DNA from: Eledone cirrhosa
Lineage: Eukaryota
Reading direction: 5' to 3'
Length of the DNA: 64,000 nucleotides
Assembly (NCBI GenBank): GCA_964016885.1
Contig: OZ024741.1
Coordinates: 296,112,001 to 296,176,000, forward strand
A model generated the notes under the pieces. It had not been told where the DNA came from. It worked only from the letters and a program-made list of their open reading frames with translations, and did no database searches. Made by a program: the position numbers and the translations under genes. Shown here piece by piece: positions 15,296 to 62,030 of this stretch (positions are counted from its first letter, which is position 1; the number at the start of each line of letters is the position of its first letter).

Positions 15296-15431
15296 ATCAA
15301 AAGATGGTTAAAAGAGTTCCAAGTATTTTATCCGATATTTGCATTGCTTTATTGTGCTACAATAAAACTCGCCTCCTACATATATATATGTAAAATAAAA
15401 GTCAAATGTTTAAAATTTAGCTTCGTTTATT

Positions 15432-15486
15432 ACTGCTATATATATTTCGGTGACGGCCATCTTTGGTTGTGACCTCTTCAGGCAGT
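15432..15486 (-). ncRNA. Minimal type I hammerhead ribozyme (family 1, left arm)
   Basis: Minus strand: ACTGC-CTGAAGA-stem II-GAAA-TATATA-TA-GCAGT. Confidence 0.75.
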
Positions 15487-15622
15487 TTGAATTAGTGTGG
15501 TATAGACAAGTACATATGTTGTTGAGGTGTATAATTTTGTCAATACTCTATGGCATATCAGAGTATTGACAAAATTATACACCTCATCAACATATGTACT
15601 TGTCTATACCACACTAATTCGG

Positions 15623-15679
15623 ACTGCCTGAAGAGGTCACAGCCAAAGATGGCTGTCACCGAAATATATATATAGCAGT
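15623..15679 (+). ncRNA. Minimal type I hammerhead ribozyme (family 1, right arm; sense to the DUSP intron)
   Basis: Stem I ACTGC/GCAGT; core CTGAAGA 15628-15634; stem II GGTCACAGCCA-AAGA-TGGCTGTCACC; GAAA 15661-15664; palindromic TATATATA stem III; AUA cleavage triplet. Confidence 0.8.
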
Positions 15680-15823
15680 AATAAACGAAGCTAAATTTTA
15701 AACATTTGACTTCTATTTTACTTTATTTTACATTACTCCGGAGTAACCAAACCAACCTGCGCACTTCGTCCAGTGCTCCAGCCTGCATACTGAGGTGTTG
15801 GTATACAACCAACATATGCTCAA

Positions 15824-17142: not shown

Positions 17143-17798
17143 CATAATTTCTCTATTTTCATTTATATATATATAATAATCTATTATCGCCACCACCACA
17201 AAAATATTTATTTCATATATATATATATTTATTCAAGGTCGATAAATAGTACCAGTTTAGTATTTGGGTTGATTCTTCCTCTATATCTCTTTCTCACTTA
17301 CATTCTCTCACTATCTTTCTCTAGGAGAAATGTGATGTATTCAGACCTAGATGGACTCCACCAGGTTTTAAAATGCCTTAGAAACACCGTGTCAATAAGG
17401 GCGTCCCCCACAAACCCCTAAGGAATTACGGGACTATATATACACACACATAGACACGTATTTATATTCACCTATCTGGTTATATTTACGAATGTATGAA
17501 TGAAACAGTCCTATAGAAGTCATTTCTATAATAAAATAAAGATGCCTATACTCTACCAACGTATTGAGTACCTTATTAAACTAGTCATTTCTTGATCCCC
17601 ATCGGCGATATAATGTAATCAATATTTAATTCTAACCACAAAAGTCAACCCTTAATACCGTGTGGTGTTGTATGGAAGAGCAATCGACTTCATTTCTTTC
17701 GCTCCTACACTCTAGACGTCTCTCCGCCTCCCATTCTCCTTTGTTAATTAATGCTACAGTGTACAAGGTTAATTGAGAATAAATTTAAGAGATAGATT

Positions 17799-22924: not shown

Positions 22925-23119
22925 TCTACTTTTGGCACAAGGCCAGCAATTATCCCAGTTCATCGTGTGCATTATATATATATATATATATATAATGCAC
23001 ACGATGAACTGCCATGCTATTAATGATTTGGAGAGATATTTGAGCTGGCTGGCTGGCTGCCTAACTCCCTTCCCCCAACCCTCCCTATTTCATCTGCTTT
23101 TCCCTTTGCCTGGTCGCCT

Positions 23120-33602: not shown

Positions 33603-34489
33603 GATATAGTCCTTAATACACTGTTTAAAAATAAAAAGGATGAGATTGTCACTAAAAGAACACCTCTTATTATTGTGCTTTATCAGGAATGACCTGGCAT
33701 GTAACTACAGCAGGTAAGAACACTCGAGATAATGAAGTACAAAACCATGACTGAAATAGTCAGCGATAGAATGCTTTTGATCATTATTCTGCCTGCTATC
33801 GAATCTGACCTATGGTTAAATAACAACTACAACAAAGAGAAAATCACCTGAAGTAATAGTCCAAAACAATCAGAAAAACAACAATAAACGGGAGGGTCAC
33901 GGATAGAACAGCTTCGATCAATCGTCTTCTTAATGGGGAAAACTCACCTGGGGTCAAACAACAAAAGTAGAGAATGGTATTTCAGATAACGAAGTCCAAG
34001 ACCTTGAAAAATATTTAAAGCAGGAGGGGCATGGATAGAAAGTGTCTTTGATCATTTATCTGCTTGATCTCAAGGCTAACCTTGGGCTACAGAAGAATAA
34101 CAACAGTGCTAACATGATAAACAACTACATTTCATTCATACATTAAAGCTTGTCTCTAATAATAAGGGACGTCAAACGTAATGATTACCTATGTGAATTT
34201 GAGTCTACCTAATTTCACAACCAAATGACGCGTTTGTCATTCCTTACACACTGCAACCAACTATAAGGGCGAGGAACCACTGTTAACCACCACCGCCTCC
34301 ACCACTACCACCACCAACCCCTAATTACCGTCCTCATTACCTACAGTACTGTACTCAGCGTACCCAATGTACTTTTGGTATGTGTGCACTACAATAACAT
34401 ACCTACCTATATTTGTTTCACCTCCATTACCAACCAATACATAACACCGTTCATGTTACACTGTCACCTGAAACTGCCTCCCCTCTCTC

Positions 34490-35690
34490 CTCACCACCAC
34501 CACCACCACCACCACTACCACTACATACCATTAATACATTCTACAACCACGGAACAACACAGCACCTTCACTCCTCCTCACCACCACCACCACCACCACC
34601 ACCACTACCACTACTACCACTACATACCATTAATACATTCTACAACCACGGAACAACACAGCACCTTCACTCCTCCTCACCACCACCACCACCACTACTA
34701 CCACTACATACCATTAATACATTCTACAACCACGGAACAACACAGCACCTTCACTCCTCCTCACCACCACCACTACCACTACTACCACTACATACCATTA
34801 ATACATTCTACAACCACGGAACAACACAGCACCTTCACTCCTCCTCACCACCACCACCACCACTACTACCACTACATACCATTAATACATTCTACAACCA
34901 CGGAACAACACAGCACCTTCACTCCTCCTCACCACCACCACCACCACCACCACCACTACCACTACTACCACTACATACCATTAATACATTCTACAACCAC
35001 GGAACAACACAGCACCTTCACTCCTCCTCACCACCACCACTACCACTACTACCACTACATACCATTAATACATTCTACAACCACGGAACAACACAGCACC
35101 TTCACTCCTCCTCACCACCACCACCACCACCACCACCACTACCACTACTACCACTACATACCATTAATACATTCTACAACCACGGAACAACACAGCACCT
35201 TCACTCCTCCTCACCACCACCACTACCACTACTACCACTACATACCATTAATACATTCTACAACCACGGAACAACACAGCACCTTCACTCCTCCTCACCA
35301 CCACCACCACCACCACCACCACTACCACTACTACCACTACATACCATTAATACATTCTACAACCACGGAACAACACAGCACCTTCACTCCTCCTCACCAC
35401 CACCACTACCACTACTACCACTACATACCATTAATACATTCTACAACCACGGAACAACACAGCACCTTCACTCCTCCTCACCACCACTACCACTACCACT
35501 ACATACCATTAATACATTCTACAACCATCAGACTATACATAATACCGTTCACATTACACCGTCACCTCAAACTGCATCCTTCACTCCTCCTCACCACTAC
35601 CACTACCACTACATACCATTAATACATTCTACAACCACGGAACAACACAGCACCTTCACTCCTCCTCACTACCACCAACACCACTACTAC
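34490..35690. repeat. Minisatellite with 84/99 bp units, ~12 copies, containing (CAC)n
   Basis: ACTACATACCATTAATACATTCTACAACCACGGAACAACACAGCACCTTCACTCCTCCTC repeats across the interval. Confidence 0.95.
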
Positions 35691-35969
35691 GCCCACCACC
35701 ACTACTACTCCCACCACCTCCACTATCTAAACTACCTACTACCACCTTGACCTAAACAATAACAGATGGGATGGTCATGGCTAGAACATCATTGGCTCAC
35801 CTTTTACTATAGATCAATTGAGGCTAAATAACAATATATACGATGAAAGGTCACATGACCATGCTATGGTTCGGGGTGGGGTAGACAATTCTAAACTTGG
35901 CAATTCCTGCTACTGTTGTGATATCGTTTCAGTCATTGAACGTCTCGATAGAAGGATATAAAAGATATA

Positions 35970-42090: not shown

Positions 42091-42237
42091 GATGAGATTC
42101 TACGGGACTATAACTGATTTCTAAAGAATGAAACAGTTCTAGCCCTGTAGAATCTCATCTATATTAAAACTGTTATACTCTGCAATGTATTGAGTACCTT
42201 ACTTACTGTGGTTACCTCCGATTCAACCCGGAATAAC

Positions 42238-48220: not shown

Positions 48221-48623
48221 ATAAATGTAATCTGAGTTTTTCGAATGTTAATAATAATATTCGATTCGTTTGCAATTTTGCAAACAAGCCTCAATTTTAT
48301 AGCCATGTCAGTAGAATGAACACTTCATTCTTGCTCTTGTGTGGGCATGCGAACAGAACCGCAGACACTAATGTTTCTGGGTATCACCCTTCATCAGTAC
48401 AGCTCACTGTTCACCTGCCAAACTGTCAGAGCTAGTGAAAATATATGCTATTTTCAAAAATACACAGTGACTGATCGGCCTCATTTGCATATTAGCAGAA
48501 TGGCTGATCAGTCAGATCTGCATATTAGCACATCCACTGATCAGCCGGATTTTCATGTCAACAGACTGGCCAGTCAGATTCCTGTAGACGAGCGATAAAT
48601 GGCCGGCTTTGCCAAATTCAAAT

Positions 48624-56872: not shown

Positions 56873-58531
<1,659 letters not shown>

Positions 58532-59650
58532 CATTCCACTTATTACAATGAAGCTCTTGCTCGAAGTGGATTTGTCGATAAGGTAGCATATACAGAGTAC
58601 GAAAATGGACCTAGAAGAAATAGATCCCGTCGCATTTGTTGGTTTAACCCACCATTTAATATGGAGGTGGCCACACCATTAGCTAAGATCTTTCTTTCCC
58701 TTATTACGAAGCATTTTCCCCCTACACATAAATATAGTAAAATTTTTAATAGAAATACTATTAAAATTTCTTACTCTACGACTCCTAACCTTGCACATAA
58801 CATCACTGCTTCAAATTTAGCTAAACTACCTAGCAGTAGGAACACGAGCAACCCTGTAGTTAGTACTAACTGTAATTGTAGGAATCGGGCTGATTGCCCC
58901 TATCCGGGAAATGCCTCTCTAGTAACATTGTCTACAAATGTAAGGTTGTAACACCCACGTCCCGTAGGGCCTACATAGGGTTAACCGCCAATAGTTTCAA
59001 GCAGCGTCTTTACATGCATACCCATTCTTTTCGTTACCCTCTAAGAAGGAATATGACGTCACTTTCAGCTTATATCTGGAGTCTAAAAGACAACCACACC
59101 CAATATAAGTTACACTGGGAGATCCTAGCTAGGGCTAGATCGTATAACGGAAATAAAAGACCATGTGACCTCTGCGCCGCTGAGGCCCTGGAAATACTCT
59201 ACGCCACAGACCACATCTTAAACAAAAAATCTGAGGCAATTTCGGCTTGTAAACATAAATTGCACAAAACTTTCCTGTATTACAGCCCCACGTTATACCC
59301 TAACGGATAGTACGATCTATACGTGGATATTTTACGTCCTGATGTGGGAGCTAATTATATGTTTTGTTTATTCCTTTACTTATTTGCATAGCGAACGTTT
59401 CCACGAACCAAAGTATCGTCTTCCTGTCTTCCTCCGGTTGCAACGTTTTTTGAAATATCCAGTTCTGCGTTTACAGATTGACTTTGTTAGTTTCAGAAGA
59501 TCCCGTTAAGGGTGAAAGCAGCGATTCTTTGCTTAAACTTTAATCTGTTATTTTAATAAATATTTGCTCTACGGTTCTTATATATTTGATATATATTTAT
59601 CCTTATCGAGCCCTCTTTGGATTTTAGTCTTCAATTTTATTATTATTACT
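58532..59650 (+). mobile_element. Second, shorter inverted copy of the same Naiad-like element (head-to-head)
   Basis: Reverse complement of 57015-58046 with scattered substitutions and a frameshift near 58895. Its 3' end extends about 85 bp further into (TA)n. Confidence 0.9.
59473..59548 (+). ncRNA. Full-length type I hammerhead-like fold with variant core (copies at 57029-57104 -, 60216-60291 -, 60767-60842 +)
   Basis: Stem I ACAGATTGA..AGTTT / AAACT-TTAATCTGT with a bulge; core CAGAAGA; stem II CCC-GTTAA-GGG; GAAA; stem III GCAG/TTGC; CUU triplet. Confidence 0.62.
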
Positions 59651-59676: not shown

Positions 59677-61104
<1,428 letters not shown>

Positions 61105-61562: not shown

Positions 61563-61614
<52 letters not shown>

Positions 61615-61616
<2 letters not shown>

Positions 61617-62030
61617 AAATAAAGTTAAATAAAAGTCAAATGATTAAAATTTAGCTTCGTTTATTACTGCTATATATATTTCAGTGACAGCCATCTTTGG
61701 CTGTGACCTCATCAGGCAGTTTGAATTAGTATGGTATAGACAAGTACATATGTTGTTTAGGTGTATGATATTGTCAATACTCTGATATGCCCAGTTCCTT
61801 GTTGGGTTGTTAATTCACTGGGGAACTGGAGTCTGATGAGGTCACAGCCAAAGATGGCTGTCACTGAAATATATATAGCAGTAATAAACGAAGCTAAATT
61901 TTAATCATTTGACTTTTATTTAACTTTATTTTACACTACTCCGGAGTAACCAAACCAACCTGCGCACTTCGTCGAGTGCTCCAGCCTGCATACTGAGGTG
62001 TTGGTATACAACCAACATAAACTCAAAATC
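61615..62030. mobile_element. Palindromic family 1 element with hammerheads at 61666-61720 (-) and 61833-61883 (+, 5' stem lost)
   Basis: Homologous to 15388-15827; CTGATGA core; TA flanks. Confidence 0.85.

Follow-up and report, generated by a model that had tools for sequence, protein, structure and literature searches.

Hammerheads of Penelope-like elements and their natural variants

The closest described counterparts of the motif analyzed here are the hammerheads of Hydra-clade Penelope-like elements (PLEs). The defining marks of this clade are an RWK-like motif, DKT, a CxCX5C linker, no CCHH, and (TA)n targets (Craig et al. 2021, PMC8557442). As at the present locus, these are (TA)n-targeting elements with a reverse transcriptase (RT) and a GIY-YIG domain, and their hammerheads are of type I and lie on the sense strand near the 3′ end of the element. 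File S2 of the same paper contains 26 Hydra hammerhead rows. U4 is present in all 26, U10.1·U11.1 in 14/26, and U at the cut in 10/26. In all 26 rows, stem III starts A-C (G16.2) and the loops are palindromic and 1–3 nt long.

Minimal hammerheads of PLEs (Cervera and de la Pena 2014, PMC4209133) share with the present motif a place in a pseudo-LTR beside a spliceosomal intron, a low expected activity, and the occurrence of core variants. One of these variants, U3-A8, is also found in a sister family here. In contrast to the present motif, which has three helices, the minimal forms are without helix III and are thought to be dimeric. The passages of the supplement of that paper that were consulted contain no CAGA core.

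The Anolis PAc Poseidon element (Frangieh et al. 2024, PMC11167929) resembles the present family in having two reverse-transcription starts that bound a tail downstream of the hammerhead. Its uncut RNA is the template, and its cleavage needs protein. Unlike the element described here, it belongs to a different clade and has a minimal canonical core, and the consulted parts of the paper describe neither a start site inside the ribozyme nor strand transfer. The extended type I hammerhead of Schistosoma type (Dufour 2009, PMC2632901) defines a contact motif, RNnA/5′-U, in which loop II ends in A and loop I carries a 5′ U. The present motif has the same 5′ U in the internal loop of stem I and the same final A in loop II, and it differs by a 5-bp inner stem, a 9 x 2 loop, U·U in place of G-C, and A4.

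Natural changes of the core are known. The text consulted of Perreault 2011 (PMC3088659) names U4C, U3-A8, A6C, and U10.1-U11.1, but not U4A. U4C is known from a viroid and from zeta/betaviroid-like RNAs (PMC3088659; 10.64898/2026.09.16.752053), and the preprint 10.64898/2026.09.16.752053 names CCGA, with no "CAGA" in its main text. In these variants, as here, a natural setting that includes tertiary contacts accommodates one core change. The literature search, which covered running text, found no report of a natural U4A hammerhead.

Structure of the motif

The window is a stretch of 64,000 nucleotides of Eledone cirrhosa (contig OZ024741.1). The motif and its parts, as read from sequence pairing and hammerhead numbering, are as follows.

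59473-59548, + strand: intact copy of the type I hammerhead motif, A4 in the core
59473-59488, + strand: 5′ side of outer stem I and of the internal loop
59494-59500, + strand: core C3-A4-G5-A6-A7-G8-A9 (CAGAAGA)
59501-59513, + strand: U10.1·U11.1 (U59501·U59513) and 3-bp stem II CCC/GGG with loop GUUAA
59514-59534, + strand: G12 A13 A14, stem III, and C16.2 U16.1 U17 at the predicted cut site

The preliminary description had proposed three helices with a bulged, extended stem I, and this arrangement can be read in the pairing at 59473-59548. Outer stem I has 7 bp (59473-79/59542-48) and is separated from the 5-bp inner stem I (59489-93/59535-39) by an internal loop of 9 x 2 nt. Stem III has five pairs, including A15.1-U16.1 and one G·U, closes a 7-nt loop, and is preceded by GAAA. 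Cleavage is predicted after 59534, behind CUU. Compared with the type I definition, three helices can pair round the core with stem I open, and G12 A13 A14 and A15.1-U16.1 (59514-59517 and 59533) and H17 (U59534) are all present. Six positions of the core C3 U4 G5 A6 N7 G8 A9 fit, and position 4 does not, being A. The usual but not universal G10.1-C11.1 pair is replaced by U·U. The extended hammerhead's 5′ U in loop 1 and RNnA in loop 2 both have a counterpart here at the level of sequence. On these grounds, the motif is classed as a variant of the type I hammerhead, from which it descends, and, with A in place of U4, not as an established member.

The unusual features named in the preliminary description are of unequal weight. 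A4 is indeed exceptional, since it occurs in 0/26 of the published Hydra-clade rows and is not named in the variant texts consulted. U·U is normal for the clade (14/26 rows) and is also natural in the U10.1-U11.1 form of Perreault 2011. In CUU, only the C is exceptional (0/26 rows), and U17 is again clade-normal (10/26 rows). Apart from A4, the motif differs from the 26 rows in a flipped G15.2-C16.2 pair, a 5-pair stem III, and a 7-nt loop; it also differs from the listed Hydra-1_oBim row (PMC8557442).

The hammerhead fold of 59473-59548 is not the minimum free energy (MFE) structure, with −9.9 against −15.1 kcal/mol. The folding z-score was −0.63, and thermodynamics alone do not favor the hammerhead fold. 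Inner stem I has a pair probability of 0.07 here and 0.11 in natural U4 copies. The competing helix UUUCA/UGAAA has a pair probability of 0.33 with A4, compared with 0.01 in natural U4 copies. In an Rfam search (E<=5), no hammerhead family appeared among the best 150 of 246 rows. Because the hammerhead is not the predicted minimum, the case for it rests on comparison. In an alignment of 12 rows, 96% of cells were paired, compared with 24–52% when the structure, which was derived from one row, was slid along. Covariation in the helices of these 12 rows, which hardly vary, was not above shuffles (299/500).

The carrier element

The remaining copies in the window and the parts of the element that carries them are listed below.

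57029-57104, − strand: copy 2, stem II broken by C03G
60216-60291, − strand: copy 3, intact, from an intron-retaining truncated insertion
60767-60842, + strand: copy 4, with A6U (CAGUAGA) and a broken stem II
57267-58610, − strand: 3′ part of a Hydra-clade PLE open reading frame (ORF) with RT, CxCX5C linker, and GIY-YIG-type endonuclease, 5′-truncated
58532-59563, + strand: inverted second arm of the insertion holding ORF 57267-58610
59391-59392, + strand: exon junction, 750-nt GT-AG intron absent (compared with L032 4056-4805)
59549-59650, + strand: two ends of the element, 59563 and about 59650 (optional tail), followed by (TA)n
60355-60683, no strand assigned: remnant of a retained intron, containing 139-bp repeats and lying between copies 3 and 4

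The four copies (59473+, 57104−, 60767+, and 60291−) terminate two inverted insertions that belong to one family. All four have A4, U·U, and CUU, as the preliminary description stated, but only two are intact, and the CAGAnGA core that it gave for all four is CAGUAGA in the copy at 60767+ (A6U). Their agreement does not amount to independent support, because the copies are ends of two inverted insertions of a single repeat family. The element ends at 59563 and about 59650 are likely reverse-transcription start sites, as judged from the tail of the anole element (PMC11167929).

The motif occurs downstream of this RT plus GIY-YIG-type ORF. The element shows (TA)n targets, tandem and inverted pseudo-LTRs, and an optional tail. 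A Pfam search gave no match on the partial protein of the window. In a second locus (L032), a single ORF with an RT followed by a C-terminal GIY-YIG contains LRWR as its RWK-like motif, SDKT, the CxCX5C linker CNCRNRADC, and YIG, without CCHH, and the element occurs there and in L031 as tandem units of 3,258–3,259 bp. The 750-nt intron, present in L032, lies about 100 nt upstream of the hammerhead core, and spliced and intron-retaining copies, the latter with the 139-bp repeats (L032:4056-4805), coexist in one family. The segment 60201-60857 was considered as a separate non-autonomous element and was rejected, as it corresponds to the intron-retaining sequence. By its sequence and position, the motif is the type I hammerhead that a Penelope-like retrotransposon of the Hydra clade carries in its terminal repeat.

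Other hammerheads occur in the window. Minimal CUGAnGA hammerheads that belong to other PLE families lie as inverted pairs, with TATATA palindromes, at 59757-60121, 61600-61900, and 15430-15680, with cores near 59863−, 60016+, 61715−, 61833+, 15481−, and 15628+. At 48340-48420 (−) there is a single type I hammerhead with CUGAUGA, in which stem II sits on an A·A mismatch and the cleavage triplet is GUC. Outside the window, loci L252-L255 hold a PLE of another clade (DKG motif) with 4,188-bp tandem units, CUGAAGA, U·U, and G15.2, and retrozyme-like type I hammerheads were seen at L104:170-250, L087:2240-2310, and L177:6315-6390, one of them with a UUGAUAA (U3-A8) core. The window also contains a tandem array of a 183-bp unit at 34487-35709, open in two frames for about 450 codons, and an Rfam mir-124 match at 22948-23019 (40.5 bits, below the gathering score of 49).

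Sister families and the age of A4

A tree of the RT-endonuclease region was built from 21 proteins, which comprised families of the same genome and outside homologues, P0002 and P0004 among them. With A as the family of the window motif, the topology was (B,(A,P0002),(D,P0004)) at 100/100, with B as sister. Canonical hammerheads occur at the same position and with the same layout in sister families B and C. Family B has CUGAUGA, U·U, a 3-bp stem II, an 8-nt loop III, and GUA, with the layout of family A. Family D, read by eye, has a UUGAUAA (U3-A8) core; its stem II is long, and its loop III has 7 nt. Since the sister families keep U4, A4 is derived. The locus L175:5344-5436 shows this closest sister family D, with its U3-A8 hammerhead and a long stem II loop that contains a TATA-like box and a putative start. 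Truncated 3′ ends of Hydra family B are also present in the window, at 42100-42230 (+) and 17480-17575 (+).

The family was counted with sequence patterns that left free positions 4, 6, and 7 and two stem II positions. These gave 20,330 matches in the 3.0-Gb genome, and 0 for a reversed control. The notion that the motif resembles a hammerhead by chance draws on its fold, which is not the MFE (z = −0.63), and on the Rfam search, in which the best 150 of 246 rows held no hammerhead. It is hardly credible, however, as its position and layout are shared with the canonical hammerheads of families B and C and with published Hydra elements, a positional homology that already largely refutes it, and as 20,330 genome matches stand against 0 reversed ones.

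A4 is present in all of the first 100 listed of the 20,330 matches. U4 occurs in 94/20,330, mostly at junctions. Thirty of these 94 loci were inspected; 12 span the motif and are scattered over subfamilies, the rest lie at 5′ junctions, and no ancestral U4 subfamily was found among them. The oldest subfamilies have BLAST identities mostly of 72–85%. Among oldest-type matches (the first 100 of 298, read by eye), 94 have A4, and U, C, and G occur twice each. N7 is A or U in these matches, and loop II varies in both sequence and length. A4 is therefore old by sequence comparison, being shared by subfamilies that are 72–85% identical. The family was also found in assembled contigs from sequencing runs of three organisms. 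A metagenome scan gave seven distant loci, four of them with a canonical CUGAGGA hammerhead.

Core position 4 is also a fold-back hot spot (loci L222-L248), where the quasi-palindrome TTC-A-GAA joins perfect inverted pairs and reads CUGA. About 22 of 30 inspected loci among 1,376 CTGA matches (control 13) are fold-back junctions. Strand switching at this hot spot could be a route from U4 to A4.

Pattern of change across subfamilies

An old subfamily (about 10% diverged) was compared with a young one on 34 old and 45 young copies. None of 51 core and stem positions differed, compared with 44/404 intron positions, for which coverage was 4–16 copies and four positions represent one indel. Two changes were found within the motif, both in the stem I loop. 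The tail was unchanged as well (0/82), so this conservation could reflect repeat exchange between subfamilies.

The majority sequence of the oldest subfamilies was obtained from 59 old loci, with the positions fixed by each search pattern left out. It differs from the window copy at 0/52 paired or core positions, at 7/24 loop or N7 positions, and at 8/33 flank positions, some of the flank and loop II differences stemming from one indel. Stems and core thus changed less than loops and N7 (Fisher p 1.6e-4) and less than the flank (p 2.9e-4). Across subfamilies, core N7 is A or U with A4 retained, and loop II is G...A, 5–6 nt long, and otherwise variable. In the oldest subfamilies, G...A is retained in loop II, and U is the first base on the 3′ side of the internal loop. 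Both agree with the RNnA/5′-U contact motif (Dufour 2009); U59540 is found in 52/57 and A59509 in 49/52 of the oldest copies. The suggestion of the preliminary description that this is a natural variant hammerhead in a PLE is thus backed by position, by the sister families, and by the stem-versus-loop change across subfamilies.

5′ junctions and a putative transcription start

An anchor at the 3′ end gave 13,662 matches; the first 100 were taken, and 92 distinct copies passed filters. Their 5′ junctions lay upstream of 59393 in 39 copies, in 59393-59484 in 13, in 59485-59511 in 35 (including one alignment slip and two that are a duplicate), in 59512-59539 in three, and at the anchor in two. 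Within this distribution, 14 junctions fall in 59485-59492, as against 13 in the whole of 59393-59484 (p 3e-9). No junction was found at 59535, right after the predicted cut (0/92).

Copies with foreign bases at −5/−4 gave 1,648 matches, of which the first 100 were read by eye. The base before A59489 was T in 47 (templated), G in 32, A in 11, and C in 10, and the excess of G among the non-T bases is significant (p 2e-7). At 30 inspected loci, about 8/11 G at −1 were not explained by an inverted arm and about 3/11 were arm-derived, by eye; both A at −1 classed as "no arm" proved arm-derived. An untemplated G is a mark of a reverse-transcribed cap. The sequence at the start is TTAGTT (TCAGTT in the oldest subfamilies), which we take to resemble an initiator, and family A has a TATA-like box at −33/−34 that is degenerate in young copies. 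From the pile-up of junctions and the untemplated G, it is likely that a capped RNA starts within inner stem I, at A59489. The pile-up of 5′ ends at A59489 with an untemplated G is new here. The corresponding features are as follows.

59486-59489, + strand: putative capped transcription start, main A59489, possible minor G59486
59489-59534, + strand: putative 46-nt terminal repeat, from start to cut

Two other readings of such ends were examined and rejected. Splicing to an AG at 59490 or 59496 would place a donor exon in the flanks, and by eye it was found in 0/92. Contig pieces (X4) that start at 59534 and might be taken for cut ends are a k-mer overlap artefact, lying 30 nt before the branch at 59563.

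Copies of families B and D, found incidentally among the loci examined, were read in the same way. In family D, 19/40 junctions lie at −3..+15 of a site inside loop II with the TATA-like box TATTTAAA at about −29. In family B, the TATA-like box TATAAATA lies at −30 relative to the base that opens stem I, and 7/23 junctions are at −3..+15; the support for a start site in this family is thin, with 3/23 junctions within 3 nt. The distance from putative start to predicted cut is 46 nt in family A, 45 in B, and 41 in D. Neither family B nor D has a junction within cut−3..cut+4 (B 0/23). Because the canonical family B is also without cut-site junctions, their absence in family A does not discriminate between active and inactive hammerheads.

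The proximity of start and core raises the question of whether an overlapping core promoter in the DNA (+1 to about +45) accounts for most of the conservation; A4 would then have been fixed for the promoter, or by it, and the hammerhead would be a decaying passenger. C3 follows the putative start by 5 nt, an internal promoter that includes downstream elements is known from Penelope (PMC2377424), and the 0/51 of the old-versus-young comparison could also be repeat exchange between subfamilies. Against this, changes within +1..+46 hit loops II and III and N7, including changes of length, and spare both strands of the helices. The outer helix is kept on both sides, and family D keeps its hammerhead though its start sits elsewhere. 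A conservation due mainly to the promoter is therefore considered quite unlikely.

Efficient cleavage in both copies, which would yield RNA of unit length or RNA circles, the proposal of Cervera and de la Pena, is held to be very unlikely. It would suit the monomer-competent stem III, the extended stem I, and the general PLE model (PMC4209133), but copies run through the cut to the G-marked end at 59489, 0/92 start at 59535, and A4 is expected to be slow (PMC9901934).

Activity and proposed mechanism

In a deep mutational scan, single mutants of the CUGA region all had low activity, except a C3:G8 swap (PMC9901934). In the anole PLE, in vitro insertion did not depend on cleavage, and none of the reads stopped at the cut (PMC11167929). 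For a viroid hammerhead, U4A reportedly did not cleave and U4C did (Ambros and Flores 1998).

These points bear on a further explanation, in which A4 ended cutting long ago and the catalytically dead junction is kept as a protein-bound signal beside the reverse-transcription starts. The weakness of CUGA mutants (PMC9901934), the dispensability of the PAc hammerhead in vitro (PMC11167929), a tail conserved like the core between old and young copies (0/82), and the lack of cut-derived ends among 92 copies are all consistent with it. It is opposed by the pattern of constraint, which is that expected of catalysis: C3, G5, A6, G8, A9, G12, A13, A14, and U17 stay and only N7 changes, with several of these positions resting on 11–24 unbiased copies and G5 differing in 5/13. 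A dead signal is accordingly a doubtful alternative, to be kept in mind but below even chances, and the apparent selection on all of the catalytic positions speaks for a degree of activity.

The preferred reading, in which confidence is evenly balanced, is a slow cutter that depends on position, such that the 5′ copy would stay uncut and the 3′ copy would end the RNA after U59534. Transcription would start at A59489. An RNA that starts there lacks the outer helix and the docking loop in its 5′ copy, so the capped 5′ copy would be without outer stem I and would stay uncut; in family D, the 5′ copy of the RNA would be without the core. A 5′ copy that stays capped would fit cDNAs that run through the cut site to the cap. 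A4 may weaken the 5′ copy further, as it can pair with U11.1 in the competing helix. The 3′ copy alone would form the full fold with loop I–loop II docking and would cut after U59534, ending the transcript, by a residual and perhaps protein-aided catalysis despite A4. The contact between stem I and loop II that had been proposed in the preliminary description fits the published loop motif, but it is probably made only in this 3′ copy of the RNA.

More speculatively, reverse transcription may start at the tail sites of the 5′ copy and run to the cap, and the short cDNA may then jump to the RNA's 3′ end through the 46-nt repeat (41–46 nt over the families). In the anole element, reverse transcription begins at tail sites near the RNA 5′ end (PMC11167929). 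No paper stating a repeat-mediated cDNA jump for PLEs was found in the literature search. The complete proposal is an active natural U4A hammerhead of Hydra-clade Penelope elements that is switched by the transcription start, off at the capped 5′ end and on at the 3′ end, with its cut defining a 41–46-nt repeat for a retrovirus-like strong-stop cDNA jump. As a whole, it is tentative and rather unlikely to hold in every part.

Significance

Descriptors that require CUGANGA would miss a family of over 20,000 copies. U4 has been treated as nearly invariant, and cleavage by the A4 motif, if it occurs, would mean that the core tolerates more than was assumed. What hammerheads do in Penelope-like elements has been stated to be unclear (PMC8557442), and the signature of a start site that the genomic copies carry yields a concrete, testable model of this role. 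The predicted restriction of cutting to the far-end copy suggests how these elements could trim their tail yet keep their cap. If the hammerhead is indeed switched by the transcription start, this would explain both the function of PLE hammerheads and the start of reverse transcription near the 5′ end of the RNA.
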